NCBI GenBank assembly: GCA_004284765.1
Contig: NQJD01000016.1
Span: 22,597 to 54,596, forward strand
Direction: 5' to 3'
DNA: 32,000 bases
From: Candidatus Electronema aureum
GTDB taxonomy: Bacteria; Desulfobacterota; Desulfobulbia; Desulfobulbales; Desulfobulbaceae
Part shown: positions 5,783 to 28,834 of the stretch, piece after piece
How the letters are laid out: every line of letters begins with the position of its first letter
Numbering within the stretch: position 1 is the first letter of the stretch
Made by a program: the position numbers and the translations under genes
The notes under the pieces: model-generated
Seen by the model: only the letters and a program-made list of their open reading frames with translations
What the model was told of the DNA's origin: nothing
Databases searched by the model: none

Positions 5783-5807
5783 TCTGAATATCAACGCAAT
5801 AGTTCTT

Positions 5808-13132: not shown

Positions 13133-14266
13133 TCATGTTCGTTCATATTGTTGGCCGGGCAACTGACGGATCAACCCTTTTAGCTCCAAGCCCAACAACA
13201 GGCCGTGCAGATCGCTGACCGGTAGCTTGCTTTTTTCTGTTAGCTCCTCAATATCCGCTGGACTGGGGTCGTCTATCAAGGTCAGTAGCTCTTTTTCCGA
13301 CGCAGAAAGCTCTTCCGCCATTGGTACCGCTTCATCGTGTTTCTCCCCGTTCAAAGTCACCGCAGGTAGTTCCATCAGTATATCATCAACCGAATGAATA
13401 AGATACGCTCCTTGTTGAATCAAGCGGTGTACGCCCTCACTTTGCAGAGAGTCAATTCTGCCGGGCACAGCAAAAACTTCCCGGTTTTGCTCCAAGGCCA
13501 TTCGCGCCGTGATCAGCGAACCAGAACGAGCCGCCGCCTCCACAATCACCACACCTAATGACAGGCCGCTGATGATTCGGTTGCGAGCAGGAAAACGGAA
13601 GCCCTCTGGCTGAGTGCCGAGCGAATATTCACTGACTATAAGACCTTGCGCGGCAACCTGTTCGTAGAGGCGGTTGTGAAAACGGGGATAAATTACATCA
13701 ACACCACAGCCCAAGACAGCAATGGTTCTCCCACCGGCAGCTAATGCGCCCGCATGGGCCTGACCGTCAATGCCGTCAGCTAAACCGCTGACTACGGCAC
13801 AACCAGCCTCTGTCAGTTGTCGCGCCAGCAAAAAGCTCACTTTGCGTCCGTAACCAGTGGCGGAGCGAGAGCCAACAAGGGCAACAGTAGGTAGCTGAAA
13901 ACAGGAAAAATCGCCCCGGCACCAAAGCAGCACAGGCGGATCAGGAATGGTTTGTAGCAGGGAAGGATAAAGGGATAAATCGTTGCAGCAAAGCAGCTGC
14001 ACACCAATTTTTGCGGCCCGTTCCTGCTCTTGCGCGGCCCATGAACGAGCCTGAGCAAGAGCGGTCGGATTGTCGAAAACTGCGGCTAACCGAGGGCCGA
14101 TACCCTCCACTTGGGATACTGCTCGGCCAGCATTCAGCACTGCCTGTGGAGTACCAAAAACGGCTACCAGCCGGTGGATCAGAGTACAGCCCAAGCCCGG
14201 CAGAGCAGCAAGAGCTAACCAATCCCTGATCGAGTCAGGCCCAGCCATCAGGCAGCAATAGGTCAA
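13133..14266 (-). CDS. dprA: DNA-processing protein DprA (Smf)
   Basis: [39 protein letters not shown] and [12 protein letters not shown] motifs. The TTG at 14266 overlaps the rpoD stop; an alternative ATG start is at 14248. Confidence 0.85.
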
Positions 14267-15795
14267 TCATGCACAAACGGCTCCAAATAGCGACTGCGGT
14301 TGGGATGCCGTAACTTCTTGATCGCCTGAGACTCAATTTGCCGAATGCGTTCTCGTGTTACGGAGAAGCACTGACCTACTTCCTCTAAGGTATGATCACA
14401 GGCCACTTCGATGCCGTAACGCAACCGTAACACCTGCGCCTCGCGTTCAGTCAGCTCGTCCATCACCTTAGACAAGCAACGCTTGAGGCTTTCGGTGATG
14501 GAACTTTCTTGAGGATCAGGATTAACCTCATCAATGATGAAATCACTGAGCAAGGTGTCTTCTTCATCGCCGACAGGTGCATCTAAAGATATTGCATCTC
14601 TGGCCGTTTTGAGTGCGGCATGGACATATTCAACATCAGTGTCCAATTGCTCGGCCAGCTCTTCCGGGGTGGGTTCGCGGCTTTCAGTGCGCTGAAATTC
14701 CCGAGTAAAACGCAGCATCCGGTTGATGGCTTCGATCATATGCACAGGCAAACGGATTGTTCGACCTTGATCGGCAATGCCCCGGTTGATTGACTGCCGA
14801 ATCCACCATGTGGCATAAGTGGAAAATTTGTAGCCCCGGTTGTAGTCGTATTTCTCCACCGCTTTCATCAGACCGATGTTGCCTTCCTGAATCAGGTCGG
14901 CCAGCATCATGCCTCGATTGAGGAACTTCTTGGAGATGGAAATCACTAAGCGCAGATTGGCCCGCACTAATGATTCCTTAGCTTGTTTCGCAGTAAGACG
15001 GCCTATCTTTACTTCGGTGAAGAGAGCGTTGAAGCTGCGGCAATCCATGCCCACAGTTTCCGCCAGATCAAAGCTAATTTGTCGTTCTAACTCGTCAATA
15101 TCCGCTGGATGCTCACCTGCCTTCGCAGCCAACAGCACCTCGCGTCTGGCTCTGATCCGCACTTCACGGAACTTTTCGCTAAATTCCTCCACCGCCTTAA
15201 CTACCGGCAGCAGGCTCCTAAAGCTCACTCGCCACTGTCGGAACAGAGCAGCGATTTCTAAACCAAGATGACGAATGCCGTCAGCCAGCCGTTCCTCGTC
15301 TTCAGGAATACCGAGCTTTTCGTGCAGCTGCCGGAACAACCCAGATCGCTGCTGATTTAACCGATTCGCCCGCTCAACTGCCTCAATGAAGGCTTCCCTG
15401 ATGACAGCCAGTCCATTGTCGTCATTCTCTGACACCCCGTTGAGAACGGAGCCGACGCGCAGATTGCCTTGAAGTAGTCCGTTTTTCAAACTATTCAGGG
15501 TTTCTAACCCCAGCGTTAACTGGAAGATAGCATTCTGTACCCTTGCCTCGCCTTCTTCAATTTTTTTGGCCAGCTCAATTTCCTCATGATAACTGAGCAA
15601 GTCCAACTCGCCCATCTCCCGAAGGTAGATGTTCATTGGGTCAGCACCAAATTCGTCCTGACTCGGCCTTTCTTCCTCATGCGCGCTGCTCTCGCAGCTC
15701 TGTTCATCCTCGGACACTTCTGCATCCGGGCTGTGCGCTGTATCTTCTTCGTCTTCATAACTTTTTTCTGAAGACAACTCTAACTGGTTCTTCAC
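14263..15795 (-). CDS. rpoD: primary RNA polymerase sigma factor (sigma-70)
   Basis: Region 1.2 YLREMG, region 2 [34 protein letters not shown], and region 4 [22 protein letters not shown] start with GGAGGAGG 8 nt upstream. Confidence 0.95.
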
Positions 15796-22080: not shown

Positions 22081-24884
22081 ATGCAGCTTCACACTTTTAA
22101 TTCGACATGGAAGGACTGCACCAAAGATTTCTTTCGCATTAAAGAGTATCGTTTCCCTGATGACCTCTGGATGTGCGAAGGCGCGGCGCGGGTTACCGCC
22201 GAAAATCCATTCGCAGTCAGCGGCAGGGAGAAGGTGACTGTCCATCTCATCACGGCAGGAAAATATCGGGAAGGGCAGCTGTATATCTGGACTCCGGGCC
22301 GCGCGGGCCGCTTTGTCTCGTCAAGCAAGGAAGACGAGCATGGGCCTATCTATGATGTTGTTTTGAAAGCGTCGGAGCGTAACCTGTTCCTTTTCAAATT
22401 CTTGGACAAGCATGGCACGTTTGAGCCTGATTACGCCAATCGCCTCTGGGTCGCGCAGGACGGCGGGGAGATATGGGCGCACAGTCAGGCTGCAGCTGTC
22501 AGCATTGCCGCGCCTGTCAAGAAACCGCTGATCGTCTATGTCCTCCAAACAGGTGCCCAGGTGCCTCCGCATCTGCATCTGTGGCAGAACGATTCTGATT
22601 TCGTCACCACCATCGAGGAAAGCGAGCCGTGCCAAGACGGCTGGGCGCGGTTCACGCATGATATATACACCGGGCGCGAGTACTGCTTCATGCTGCGCAG
22701 CCCGGATCTGCCGGGCGAGTGGGAGAGCAAGGAGGCTGAACGGAACATCCTTCTGGATGCGGATGGCGGGCATTGCACCTTTGCCGGCGACAGTGCCAGA
22801 CGCAAACTGGGCAAGGAAGGTGTCTGGACATTGGAAGGAGATAACCAACTGTTCGGCAGGCAGCCGTTTGCAGACAAAAAGATTTGCCTTGAGATTGCGG
22901 CCAGAGACTCCGGCTGCACGCTGGAAACGCCCTTGTTCTTGGATGTCTGGATCAACAGGGCGCGCACGCAACTGCACACCGGACTGACAGCCGACGCGGA
23001 CGGGCACTATCGCTTCCAAACCTTCCCGGAAGTGATCACATCATTCTCGTTCCGCTCTGACAACGCCGCCGAGCAGATAGAACGTCACTGCCTCAAGGCA
23101 GCGGATGATGCAAGCGAGATGCATTGCTATGTGGTGCTGGATCGCGCGGATGTTCTGCCAATGCAGCCTCCGGCTGATCTTTTCAGCAATCCGCCCTTCG
23201 ACATCGAACGGCCAGGCGTGTGGGTTGCCGACGACCATCTCCGCTTTGCTCTGCACTGCCCCAAGGCCGCCGCAGTCGAAGTGGTCGGCGACTGGACCGG
23301 CTGGCAGGATTCGCCGCTGCCCATGCGCTCGACCCTCGACGGCACCTATTGGTGGGCGCAGGTGCCGGTCGCGGATGTCACTGCCGCGCTTGGCGGCTCC
23401 TTTCATGGGGAACGCTACAAGTTCCGGCTTAATCAGGCGCGCTTGGTGCAGGATCCGGCTGCCGACTGGGTGGACAACTCAGATCTGAGCAGTGCCTCAA
23501 GGCTGGTGGATCATCAGGCGTTTGCTTGGCAGGCAGCTGATTGGCAGCGGCCCGGCTGGGAATCTCTCAACATCTACCAGCTTCATCCATCAAGGTTCAG
23601 CAGCCGCGACGGGCAGCACGGTCTTGATGCTGTGACGCGCGAGATGACCGCCCCTGACGGCTATCTCCGCAAGGTCAAGGCGACAGCCGTGCTGCTGATG
23701 CCCACCTGCGAGTTTGCCGGAGACGACAGCTGGGGCTACAATCCTTCGTTCTTCTACTCAGTTGAGTCTGCCTATGGCGGCCCGGACGCGCTCAAGCGGC
23801 TGGTCGATGCCTGTCACCAGCAGGGCAAGGCGGTGCTGATGGATGTGATCTTCAACCATGCCTCGGCTTCAGACAACGTGCTGTGGAGTGTCGCCCCTGA
23901 GAGCTTCTTTGACGGCGACACGGACTGGGGGCCGATGATCAACTTCGACCATCCCCAGGTGCTTCACTTCTTTGAACGCAACTTGACGCACTTCATGCGG
24001 AACTACAGGATCGACGGCTTCCGCTTTGATTTCACCCGCGTTGTCCGCTTCGGCGATCAATGGATAGCCCATGTCAAGCAGCCAGGCTCCGGCGGCGGCT
24101 GGGGCTTCATGCAGCGGCTTCGCGAAGCGGTCCGCCAGGTTGACGGACGCTGCCTGATGATGGCCGAGAACTTGCCCAATGACTGGGATCTCACCTATAA
24201 CAGCGGCCCGATGGACACGCAATGGTGCGATGATTTCCATGACCGCATGGTGGATGCGTGCAGAGGCTGGGACATGATGAACCGCTTGGCGGATGCTGTG
24301 CAGATGACGCACACGGCCTGCACCCGCTGGCATGAGGCAACCAACTATGCCGAGAGTCACGACGAGGTGGGCAATGAGCCGAACCGCATCAGCTCTGTGG
24401 CCGGGCCTGGCCAAGGACTGCGGCGGAGCAAGGTGGCAAGTGCCGCAACGCTCCTGAGCCGGGGCATTCCGCTTTCCTTCATGGGTGCGGAAACGGGCGA
24501 GTGGCGGCAGTTTCACAAGGATGGCGAGCAAGCACTCGATCTCAACTATTATGAACAGGACGGCGCAGCCTGTTGTTTGCGGAACTGGTGGAACCGGCTC
24601 TCCGAGATTCGCCGCAGCAATCCGCGTCTTGAGGGGCCTTCACGCGCGGCGAGGCCAACGATCTGTTCATCCTCCTGAACTTCAGCGGCTGGTCTGGCTG
24701 GCGTTCGCTCGCGGAGCTTAATCTGCCTGATGGGGAGTACAAGGAGCTGCTGAATTCAACCTGGGGAGACTACCGGGTTGAGTGGGAAGACGAACACTCC
24801 AACGGCGGCTGGGATGCTCACATGCACCGTGGCCACTGGTTGAATATCCCCGATTACGGAGTCGTGATGCTGGAGAAACGTTGA
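22081..24884 (+). pseudogene. GH13 alpha-amylase-family enzyme (branching-enzyme/TreZ-like, with a CBM48-like module), frameshifted near its 3' end
   Basis: The four GH13 regions are VLMDVIFNHAS, IDGFRFDFTR, MMAENL and YAESHDEV. A CBM48/E-set-like segment is LRFALHCPKAAAVEVVGDWTGW. The main frame stops at 24678. The expected C-terminal beta-domain (AFTRGEANDLFILLNFSGW...YGVVMLEKR) continues in another frame from 24633 to the stop at 24882-24884. The shift must lie near the GAGGGGCC run at 24631-24638. Confidence 0.75.
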
Positions 24885-24994
24885 TTGGACGTGAAGAGAA
24901 TGGGAGCAGCTCATATGTGGCATCCGCAAAGGTGATCTTTGCGGAAGGTTGCACAACCTCAGCGCATCACCGACAAGGTGAAGGAAGAATATCT

Positions 24995-26011
24995 ATGAAT
25001 CCAGAATTGCTGCCAGACTATTCCACAGAAGGCGAAGAGCAGATCATCAAGGAAATGATCAAGCTGACCATTGGCCTGATGGAGGAATCGCCAGACGGCT
25101 GCCCGCTGCGGGTCCAGCACGCCAAGGCCACGGCCTGTGTCAGAGCAACATTCGAGATTGCTGCGGATATTCCAGCCAGTCTCCGCTATGGGGTGTTCAG
25201 CCAGCCAGGCCGGGTCTTTGAGGCCATTGTCCGCTTCTCCAATGCCCAAGGCACAATCACGCCCGATGGCGACCGAACCGCCAGAGGCTTGGCCATTAAG
25301 CTACTCAATGTTCCTGGGCAGCGGGCAATGGCCAGCGACACGGACAGCAGCCAAGATTTCCTCTTCGTGGATCATCCTGTCTTTCCCTTTCCGAACGCGG
25401 CAGAATACCGGGATGTGATTAAGCACAAGAGCGTGCCGCTGATCGGCGATCTTCTTGCCCTTGCCCATCTTCAGCTCTTTGAACCTGAGCAGCTCAAGAT
25501 CATCAAGGAGATCAGAAAGAAGAGTGTGACCAGCCCCCTCAGCATCACCTACTGGAGCGGTGTGCCGTACTGGCTTGGCGACGCTGCCAGCACGGCAGGG
25601 CAGGCTGTGAAGTATATAGCCGTGCCGCCTGTGCTTGCCGCAGGGCCTGCTGATCCAGAAGAGCTGCCGCCAGACTACCTGAGAGAGGCCGTTGCCAAGC
25701 AGCTTGCTGCCAGCGAAGCCGTCTTTGACTTCAAGGTGCAGAAGCAGGGGGATCCGCTGAAGATGCCGATTGAGAATGCCTCGGTGTATTGGGACGAGCA
25801 GCAGTCAGTGCCTGTTACAGTCGCGACCTTGCGCATCAGCAAGCAGGCGGTCAACAGCAACAGCGAACTGGAGCAGCGTTGCGAAGGAATGTTCTTCAAC
25901 CCGTGGCACGCGCTCAAGGAGCATCGTCCGCTGGGCAGCCTCAACCGTCTGCGCAAGGCAGTGTATGAGGCCAGCTTTGCCGAGCGTGAACGGCGGAAGA
26001 AGGCCTGTTGA
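24995..26011 (+). CDS. catalase-related haem protein (small catalase-like family, 338 aa)
   Basis: ATG at 24995 with GAAGGAAG upstream. Distal-His motif RVQHAK..C.....F, then VRFSNAQG, and proximal-Tyr motif RKAVYEASFAER, as in catalase-fold proteins. The track ORF start at 24782 overlaps the GH13 tail and is rejected. Confidence 0.7.
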   Translation: MNPELLPDYSTEGEEQIIKEMIKLTIGLMEESPDGCPLRVQHAKATACVRATFEIAADIPASLRYGVFSQPGRVFEAIVRFSNAQGTITPDGDRTARGLAIKLLNVPGQRAMASDTDSSQDFLFVDHPVFPFPNAAEYRDVIKHKSVPLIGDLLALAHLQLFEPEQLKIIKEIRKKSVTSPLSITYWSGVPYWLGDAASTAGQAVKYIAVPPVLAAGPADPEELPPDYLREAVAKQLAASEAVFDFKVQKQGDPLKMPIENASVYWDEQQSVPVTVATLRISKQAVNSNSELEQRCEGMFFNPWHALKEHRPLGSLNRLRKAVYEASFAERERRKKAC

Positions 26012-26082
26012 TCACGGAGCTGCAAAGAAAGTGAGCGGCGTTGGTGCTGTGCTGCTGGCAAGGAAGCGGAGCGAAATTTTTC

Positions 26083-26175
26083 AGCGCGATGCTCAAGCCG
26101 CTGGAGCTGTTCAAGTGGATTGCCTTCACGAAGCTGAATGTCAGGAAGCTGATGCGGGCGAAGAAGGGGGGATAA
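26083..26175 (+). pseudogene. remnant of a livM 3' end (second, decayed copy)
   Basis: 26095-26120 is identical to 21418-21443, and 26121-26171 matches 21498-21548 at 47/51. It reads ..LKPLELFKWI/AFTKLNVRKLMRAKKGG* in the livM frame, lacking the 54 nt (18 codons) found at 21444-21497. The ORF track shows the same out-of-frame peptide, AAGAVQVD...AECQEADAGEE, at both places. Confidence 0.8.
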
Positions 26176-26207
26176 CGTAGAGTAAATTTTTTGCACTTTG
26201 ATGAAGA

Positions 26208-26323
26208 TAGGAGTTACGCAGTTGAAATGAGAAATTCAGCTATTACAGATAGTTGTCTTTTTGCCGCCTAAGTCGTCAGTTGAATAAAATCAACTGGTTG
26301 GCGGTCGAACTGCGTAACTCCTA
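26208..26323 (+). mobile_element. 116-bp element with terminal inverted repeats, copy B (MITE-like; a structured RNA is not excluded)
   Basis: Same length, termini and hairpins as 1674-1789. It is flanked by TA on both sides. It lies 32 nt after the livM-remnant stop and 66 nt before the start of the AT-rich 310-aa ORF. Confidence 0.7.
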
Positions 26324-26389
26324 GAAGAATTGCTGCAAACTGGCAATGCAAGTTACATCTGCTTAATTTTAAGCTACATGGAGTCAGTA

Positions 26390-27322
26390 ATGAATCAAAA
26401 TAAAAAAATATTCACTCAAGAATCAGGTGATAATCTTTATATGGATATTCGGAGCGGCACAGATGAACTTTGTTGTGATGCCGTTATATCATGCAAAAAT
26501 GCCAAAGAATTTGTAATCAAGCTTTGGCAAGATTCGGGAAAATTTCTTGATCCAAAATTTCCAGATAAACTTGCCAGTCGATTTCATCAGCATTTTTGGG
26601 AGCTTTATTTGGCAGCTACACTTCATGATGTTGGATTTCCTCTTGTTGAACAAAAGAAAGAAGAGGGACCAGACATTCTTTTGTGCAATAATAGTCAATG
26701 CGTATGGGTAGAAGCAATAGCTGTCACAGCAGGGGATGGCAATGACGCAGTGCCAGCAAATGTATGCGGTCAAGCCAGCCCCGTGCCTGATGAGCAAATC
26801 AGACTTCGCCTAACAAGTGCGTTTAAAGAGAAATTTGAAAAATATCAAAAGTACATAACCAATGGTATTGTTAGCGATAATGATCAATTTATCATAGCGA
26901 TTAATGCAGCTATAGTGCCTTCTGCGCGCTTAGAGCGAGAGTTGCCTTTTATAGTAAGATGTTTGCTTCCGTTCGGTCACGAATTGTTGGAAATTAATCA
27001 ACAAACAATGAAAGCAGTCAACAGAACTCATACATATCAAGGCGAGATAAATAAAAAATCTGGTACAAAAATCCCTGTAACAATATTCCAGCAAGAAAAA
27101 TATGAAGGTATATCTGCTGTTATCTATTCGTGTTCCGATGTGTCGTACAACAATGTTATTTTGGGAGACGATATAGTCGTTGTCCATAATCCATTAGCTC
27201 GCAACCAATTGCCTCACGATTTTATAAAGCGCGGTTCTGAATTTTTTGTCAATTGTCAATTACAATTAGAGCGTATAGAGTACAGATCAATGCCCCAGCA
27301 GGAGTTGTCTGATGCTACTTGA
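26390..27322 (+). CDS. AT-rich orphan protein (310 aa), possible PD-(D/E)xK-like nuclease fold, inserted between the livM remnant and livG
   Basis: I prefer ATG 26390 (GGAG 6 nt upstream) to the track start at 26330. FWELYLAATLHDVGF..EEGPDILLCNNSQCVWVEAIAV has the E..PD..(hydrophobic)xE spacing of restriction-endonuclease-like cores, but no clear Lys. Its last 11 nt overlap the livG start. Confidence 0.6.
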   Translation: MNQNKKIFTQESGDNLYMDIRSGTDELCCDAVISCKNAKEFVIKLWQDSGKFLDPKFPDKLASRFHQHFWELYLAATLHDVGFPLVEQKKEEGPDILLCNNSQCVWVEAIAVTAGDGNDAVPANVCGQASPVPDEQIRLRLTSAFKEKFEKYQKYITNGIVSDNDQFIIAINAAIVPSARLERELPFIVRCLLPFGHELLEINQQTMKAVNRTHTYQGEINKKSGTKIPVTIFQQEKYEGISAVIYSCSDVSYNNVILGDDIVVVHNPLARNQLPHDFIKRGSEFFVNCQLQLERIEYRSMPQQELSDAT

Positions 27323-28792: not shown

Positions 28793-28834
28793 GATCAATG
28801 GCTTCTTTTGCCAACCACGTAACTCATAGTCATC

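Follow-up and report, generated by a model that had tools for sequence, protein, structure and literature searches.

[quoted passage not shown]

Results and Discussion

Organization of the Two Copies and Their Surroundings

The window, i.e. the whole 32,000-nt stretch of DNA that was analysed, contains two colinear copies of a 116-bp element on the + strand, copy A (1674–1789) and copy B (26208–26323). They are 87.07% identical (101/116 positions, 15 substitutions). In both copies the element starts with TAGGAGTTACGCAGTT and ends with AACTGCGTAACTCCTA, the exact reverse complement, which gives perfect 16-bp terminal inverted repeats (TIRs) in copy A as well as in copy B. The preliminary description of this DNA had reported the same lengths, identity, substitution count and perfect TIRs, and all of these were correct. 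The TIR 16-mer occurs exactly four times in the window, against a chance expectation of 0.08 even with three mismatches allowed, and a search of the window with a profile of the family (nhmmer, E = 9e-33 for copy B) returned copies A and B only.

The left TIR of copy B, TAGGAGTTACGCAGTTG (26208–26224, + strand), is the same as the 17-bp end of ISMesi2-type insertion sequences (ISs) of the IS701 family. The right TIR, AACTGCGTAACTCCTA (26308–26323, − strand), matches the left one perfectly over 16 bp, and the 17th base is unpaired. Copy B is flanked by the direct repeat GAAGA (26203–26207 and 26324–26328), a 5-bp target-site duplication with which the family-wide statistics given below agree. 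The most conserved part of the core, according to the alignment of the subfamily to which the window copies belong, is an internal block, CAGTTGAATAAAATCAAC (26277–26294, + strand), which holds a GTTGA/TCAAC hairpin; the inner 8 nt of the TIR recur in this block as CAGTTGAA. A promoter-like match (TTGCCG-18-TAAAAT, 9/12; 26261–26290, + strand) faces the open reading frame (ORF) starting at 26390, and this single match is not above chance (0.4 ± 0.7 in shuffled sequences).

Copy A lies 213 nt beyond the 3′ end of an NT5C-like gene (2003–2587, − strand). No intact target duplication was found at its flanks (AGACA versus TCAAA). Given the 13% divergence of the two copies and the loss of the duplication around copy A, both are probably old insertions. 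A third copy may have left a solo right-TIR remnant, CCAACCACGTAACTCATA (28811–28828, − strand), which matches CCAACTGCGTAACTCCTA at 15/18 positions and is located in the 42 bp that separate the second ABC ATPase gene from a NACHT-HEAT gene; the evidence for it is weak, with about 0.08 such matches expected by chance.

The GC content drops to 41.7% in positions 26001–27000 of the window, compared with 58% and 53% in the flanks, and copy B sits at the GC boundary. For these two reasons the low-GC segment may be foreign DNA. The ORF at 26390–27322 (310 aa) begins 66 nt downstream of copy B, exactly the distance reported earlier. Even at E ≤ 1 it had no counterpart in Pfam, and neither of the two ATG starts tried gave a product identical to one on record. 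Just upstream of copy B, a catalase-related ORF (24782–26011, with a weak partial match to Pfam Catalase) overlaps a 136-aa ORF in another frame (25770–26180); this overlap could represent a frameshifted or mis-delimited gene.

Distribution of the Family

One genome per species was scanned with the pattern GTTACGCAGTT-N70-100-AACTGCGTAAC, in which the outer five bases and the core were left free. At least 111 loci were found. It should be noted that the pattern fixed 11 of the 17 TIR bases, and the conservation of the TIR among these short elements is therefore partly forced by the search. Credible copies, with TAGGA/TCCTA tips, were present in at least six bacterial phyla. Among the matches listed, these include Chloroflexota, Acidobacteriota (Pyrinomonadaceae), Planctomycetota and Abditibacteriota, together with Desulfobacterota (including the cable bacterium Electrothrix) and Pseudomonadota (Thiomargarita, Thiotrichaceae, Competibacter, Chromatium and Magnetococcales). 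Three further loci, from Chamaesiphon, Solirubrobacterales and Latescibacterota, have neither the tips nor duplications, and the one from Solirubrobacterales is a run of GTTACGC-like repeats. These three are probably not members of the family, and their phyla were therefore left out of the count.

Among the matches listed, the copy closest to copy B (89.7% identity) was found in a Desulfobulbaceae MAG. Judged by this MITE sharing only, the source of the window would probably be a related member of the Desulfobacterota. A scan of metagenomes with an internal 18-mer gave mostly chance matches, and TIRs were found nearby in only 15 of 120 loci. With these additions the window's subfamily comprises 21 full-length members, 10 from the window and the genome loci and 11 from the metagenome scan. 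All 21 are intergenic, and none is spanned by an ORF of 100 aa or more. The 116-mer had no BLAST match in E. coli genomes or PLSDB plasmids. In five independent assemblies of the source organism the sequence breaks off or becomes chimeric within copy A, the behaviour expected of a dispersed repeat.

The MAG JAZKAR01 contains many copies of a subfamily with the same TIR and a different core (L023, L024, L027, L054, L059 and L069, with further loci L078, L083, L090, L095 and L106). Their lengths fall into classes of about 93–94, 107–108 and 118–122 bp, distinguished by whether GC-rich modules of about 14 nt (GCGTGGGACGCCCC / GCGGGGCATCCCAT) are present.

In the full-text literature the TIR string matched unrelated primers only, and no description of the present family was found in the literature searched. 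[quoted passage not shown]

Target-Site Duplication and Insertion Preference

The position of the duplicated bases was determined for 118 short elements with the inner TIR among the matches listed. Directly outside TAGGA...TCCTA, a perfect direct repeat of 5 bp was present in 60 of them, of 6 bp in a further 12 and of 4 bp in two, so that 74/118 carry some perfect duplication of 4–6 bp. When the flanks were shifted 7 nt outward as a control, only two matches were obtained, both of 4 bp. Other offsets, including the one that treats the terminal TA as the duplication, gave background only. The tips themselves were TAGGA in 77 and TCCTA in 71 of 115 copies among the matches listed. Similarly, the 11 additional full-length subfamily copies from metagenomes had a 5-bp duplication in nine cases and a 4-bp duplication in one. 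The reconstructed targets revealed a palindromic, A/T-rich preference, AT-N5-AT, and the target of copy B, reconstructed as AT-GAAGA-AT, fits it.

These data bear directly on the type of transposon involved. In the preliminary description the element was regarded as flanked by a TA duplication and, on this basis, as a MITE derived from IS630/Tc1-mariner elements, of which the TA duplication is the defining feature. It is true that the element has short TIRs and both begins and ends with TA. However, this TA lies within the inverted repeat, as the outermost bases of the TIR, and the duplication consists of the 5 nt that follow it outward; around copy B this is the GAAGA repeat. The same holds for the family, with a 5-bp repeat outside the TA in 60/118 and a 6-bp repeat in 12 more of the matches listed. 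Moreover, every transposase-bearing element that has this TIR and whose ends were checked belongs to the IS701 family. The mariner origin is thus refuted by a duplication of 5 bp (sometimes 4 or 6) and by a TIR of IS701 elements, and we consider it extremely improbable.

An empty site can be proposed for one locus of the family, in which the copy interrupts the reading frame of an IS5-like transposase. Excision of the copy together with one TGTAT restores the frame, which suggests, by inference from the sequence, an empty site with a TGTAT duplication. The interrupted gene (L008:5496–6482) encodes an IS5/Harbinger-like transposase with its own TIR, TAGACCTCTTGCATAAG, and the insertion is at 5797; most of the right TIR of this copy was lost via a deletion between two TCC repeats. 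For copy B, the predicted empty site with a single 5-bp target would read ...ATGAAGAAT... Searches via the proteins encoded beside the window copies revealed no filled/empty difference among strains, as the available contigs break in the element or start beyond it.

Two other loci were compared with the window. In L217, an orthologue of the window gene 14263–15795 (about 80% amino acid identity in the best stretch) adjoins a MITE; this locus gives no empty-site comparison, since its flank is not colinear with the window. In L207:1448–1580, the flanks resemble those of copy B (26201–26334) (ATRAAGAATTKCT), with ATAAAGA and AAAGAATTTCT on the two sides versus ATGAAGA and GAAGAATTGCT in the window. 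The neighbouring genes are not homologous, and an orthologous insertion was rejected; the likeness is read as target preference or chance.

Search for the Parent Insertion Sequence

No transposase of the ISAba11/ISMesi2 group of the IS701 family was detected within the 32-kb window (tblastn, best E = 3.9). Likewise, none of the solo TIRs among the at least 111 genome loci had a transposase attached; they were remnants or, in one case, the truncated copy inside the IS5-like gene. When flanking ORFs of at least 120 aa were clustered (about 800 kb of flanking DNA around the genome loci listed), no recurrent transposase was found.

A first link to a transposase came from a contig classified as viral (L003:1–955, IMGVR_UViG_3300009788_000061). 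It carries a frameshifted IS701-family element adjoining another gene, and its transposase ORF stops precisely at a perfect right TIR. A search upstream of this locus gave the locus itself again. Once repaired, the protein matches NCBIfam NF049921, "IS701 family transposase", with 334 bits (cutoff 250), as well as Pfam DDE_5 and DDE_Tnp_1. A protein search gave 4044 clusters at E ≤ 1e-20; most were 327–340 aa long, and many came from contigs of about 1.05 kb. From these relatives, 20 IS loci representing seven transposase clusters (57–76% mutual identity) were retrieved by protein and not by the DNA pattern. All 20 were 1044–1055 bp long and had (T/C)AGGAGTTACGCAGTTG at their ends, with no more than one mismatch, and the last codons and the stop of the transposase (CCA ACT GCG TAA) lie inside the right TIR. 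Because the loci were found by protein, the conservation of the TIR in these ISs is not an artefact of the DNA pattern.

The same TIR, with at most two mismatches, was found in all 20 loci and, on finished plasmids, in ISMesi2 and in copies from Gloeocapsa and Methanosarcina barkeri. The Gloeocapsa copy has a 5-bp duplication, ATGCT. The records of the plasmid relatives are annotated as "IS701-like element ISMesi2 / ISAba11 family transposase". The TIR was confirmed on elements from Desulfobacterota, Deinococcota, Cyanobacteriota and one archaeon. In one genome, the MAG JAABRU01, the IS (L120) occurs together with MITEs (L109 and L113).

Beyond the 17-bp TIR, the ends of the ISs vary among lineages, and none of them resembles the MITE core. 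Most full-length metagenome copies of the IS lack clean duplications, and only one (L248) is perfect. Several of these copies have one flank in common with another copy and not the other flank, which points to chimeric assembly across the repeat. As for the length of the duplication, it is mostly 5 bp in the MITEs and 5 bp in the ISAba11 and Gloeocapsa copies. For the IS701 family the ISfinder figure is 4–5 bp.

The link to a DDE transposase is also relevant to another explanation, that of a palindromic repeat of the REP/REPIN type spread by a RAYT, an IS200/IS605-like tyrosine transposase. A length of about 100 bp, an intergenic location, the ability to form hairpins and multiple copies are all in agreement with a REPIN. 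On the other hand, insertion sequences with a DDE transposase have identical ends, no RAYT-like or other transposase gene recurs in the approximately 800 kb of flanking DNA, and 74/118 copies among the matches listed have target duplications. REPINs are not known to make target-site duplications. The probability of this explanation is next to negligible.

Possibility of a Structured RNA

The preliminary description also left room for a transcribed structured RNA, such as a leader or small RNA. In this reading, which can be extended to an mRNA-stabilising hairpin, selection on the + strand would maintain the internal helices, either instead of the transposon nature of the element or on top of it. 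Several features could be seen in this light. Both strands fold far better than shuffled sequences (z = −6 to −7.7), an effect due for the most part to the TIR stem. In the left hairpin of the 21-member alignment, cells of the G:U type outnumber those of the A:C type by 20 to 1, and hardly any variation is seen in the block CAGTTGAAYAAAATCAAC within the subfamily. Copy B is located 66 nt upstream of an ORF, and the copies are oriented like the neighbouring ORFs in 22 cases and opposite to them in 12, a non-significant difference based on crude ORF calls.

However, a search of Rfam 15 returned no match at the gathering score for the whole window, nor at E ≤ 1 for the region around copy B. Covariation was not significant in the 21-copy alignment. 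The RNAalifold covariation term was only −0.5 kcal/mol. In a shuffle test on a structure made up of the TIR stem, the left hairpin and the GTTGA/TCAAC hairpin, three pairs changed on both sides versus 2.1 in shuffles, and 154 of 500 shuffles did as well (the power of 21 sequences is limited). Compensatory changes were absent from the 16-bp terminal stem, in which seven pairs vary, in each case only through loss of pairing.

The substitutions between the two window copies had been described as preserving the internal helices. This did not hold in the larger alignment, where pairing in two of these helices is found in about half of the cells: helix 65–71/92–98 is Watson–Crick in only 75/147 cells and helix 38–41/46–49 in 47/84 (21 members). 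Helix 14–19/28–33 competes with the TIR stem, and fold prediction gave different internal helices for copies A and B. The only proposed helix that is consistently present is the GTTGA/TCAAC hairpin (72–76/83–87), which never varies and is uninformative either way for this reason. The G:U excess can be traced to a few clade-level differences, and three of the 12 pairs of the left hairpin are broken in the clade of the window copies. The genes on either side are convergent for copy A and co-directional for copy B, so the position with respect to gene starts is inconsistent. Finally, there is no terminator-like run of T. A structured RNA is not supported by these sequence comparisons, and we regard it as highly improbable.

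A related proposal is that the element is a MITE and that, in addition, the Desulfobulbaceae-type subfamily was co-opted by its host as an outward promoter or a + strand RNA hairpin. The near-invariant CAGTTGAAYAAAATCAAC block, with its hairpin and −10-like TAAAAT, and the G:U-biased left hairpin could be the basis of such a role. If so, a neighbouring gene could be influenced; for copy B this might be the low-GC orphan ORF that begins 66 nt downstream. We consider co-option very unlikely.

Proposed Origin and Mobilisation of the Element

MITEs are shorter than about 600 bp and carry no transposase gene. The window element is 116 bp long and has no transposase gene, and it combines TIRs, target duplications and dispersed copies with a TIR common to autonomous ISs. 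The earlier view that a MITE is the most parsimonious reading is thus upheld for this short, non-coding and multi-copy element with TIRs at its ends and target duplications outside them. Since the 17-bp TIR is identical with that of transposase-bearing elements and 5-bp duplications are present, we assign the element to the ISAba11/ISMesi2 group. Judging from these sequence features, the 116-bp repeat is very probably a MITE mobilised in trans, in the past or at present, by a transposase of this group (IS701 family).

Based on the above, we suggest the following pathway. The TIR TAGGAGTTACGCAGTTG (17 bp) would be the recognition end of the ISAba11/ISMesi2 group, the autonomous elements of which are about 1.05 kb long and encode one DDE transposase of about 331 aa. 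The transposase, produced from a full-length IS elsewhere in the cell, would bind both TIRs and excise or copy the 116-bp unit. The unit would then be inserted at A/T-rich sites, preferably AT-N5-AT, by staggered cuts usually 5 bp apart, which would leave a 5-bp direct repeat such as the one around copy B. Mobilisation in trans, its chemistry and any present mobility of the window copies are what we infer here; the anatomy of the copies, their number, the duplications and the TIR identity were read directly.

It should be noted that the MITE core and the ISs have nothing in common beyond the TIR. For this reason the MITE is best described as two TIRs enclosing filler that is unrelated and partly palindromic; it is not a simple deletion derivative of any sampled IS.

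The element should therefore be annotated as an IS701-family MITE (ISAba11/ISMesi2 group) that duplicates 5 bp, and not as a mariner-type MITE or a candidate RNA. The family itself is new to the literature searched; the kind of object is well known, and the finding is an ordinary one. What deserves attention is the breadth of conservation of the 17-bp TIR, which extends over several bacterial phyla and one archaeon. A single end sequence marks a very widespread clade of transposases and, at the same time, many MITE subfamilies with unrelated cores in at least six phyla. The TIR can serve as a handle for repeat masking, for understanding why contigs of metagenome assemblies break, and for work on the origin of MITEs around a conserved TIR.

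Comparison with Known Elements

MITEs of the IS630/Tc1-mariner type likewise have short TIRs and TA ends. They differ in the TA duplication, in place of which the window element has a 5-bp duplication outside the TA and a cognate transposase of the IS701 family.

MITEAba12 of Acinetobacter (PMC6382973) is an element of the same kind, about 113 bp long and non-coding, with TIRs matching those of a co-resident IS. Its target duplications are kept in 40% of the copies, A/T-rich targets are preferred, and outward-facing promoter-like sequences have been proposed for it (PMC6382973). However, the proposed parent is ISAba12, the duplications are of 9 bp, and the TIR is different, the related ISs being tabulated with GGCTTTGTTGCA... 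(PMC6382973). There is no sequence relationship between MITEAba12 and the window element.

ISAba11 is an IS701-family element of Acinetobacter. Its TIR, TAGGACTTACGCA, agrees with the MITE at 12 of the first 13 TIR bases, and the ends of the window element match the group TIR TAGGAsTTACGCA... A plasmid copy of ISAba11 has a 5-bp duplication, TATAG, of the same length as that of the MITE, and its single DDE transposase belongs to the same family (40% identity). Transposition of ISAba11 was shown experimentally, as stated in PMC9771954 with reference to Moffatt et al. 2011. No description of an ISAba11-derived MITE was found in the literature searched. ISAba11 differs from the MITE in being autonomous and in the inner part of the TIR (..CATT/..CACT versus ..CAGTTG of the MITE), and its host is Acinetobacter, whereas the hosts of the MITE are environmental lineages.

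ISMesi2 (IS701 family), from the Allomeiothermus silvanus plasmid pMESIL01 (NC_014213.1), has a left TIR identical to that of the MITE, TAGGAGTTACGCAGTTG, over all 17 nt, and one base is different in the right TIR. The copy examined is flanked by a 7-bp repeat, TGGAGGA, and not by 5 bp. It is an autonomous element of about 1.09 kb with a transposase gene, while the window element is 116 bp long, has no gene and has a core unrelated to the IS interior. The ISMesi2 transposase is 55% identical to the transposases of the 1.05-kb elements that bear the exact TIR of the MITE, and in ISMesi2 and these elements alike the stop codon lies inside the right TIR.
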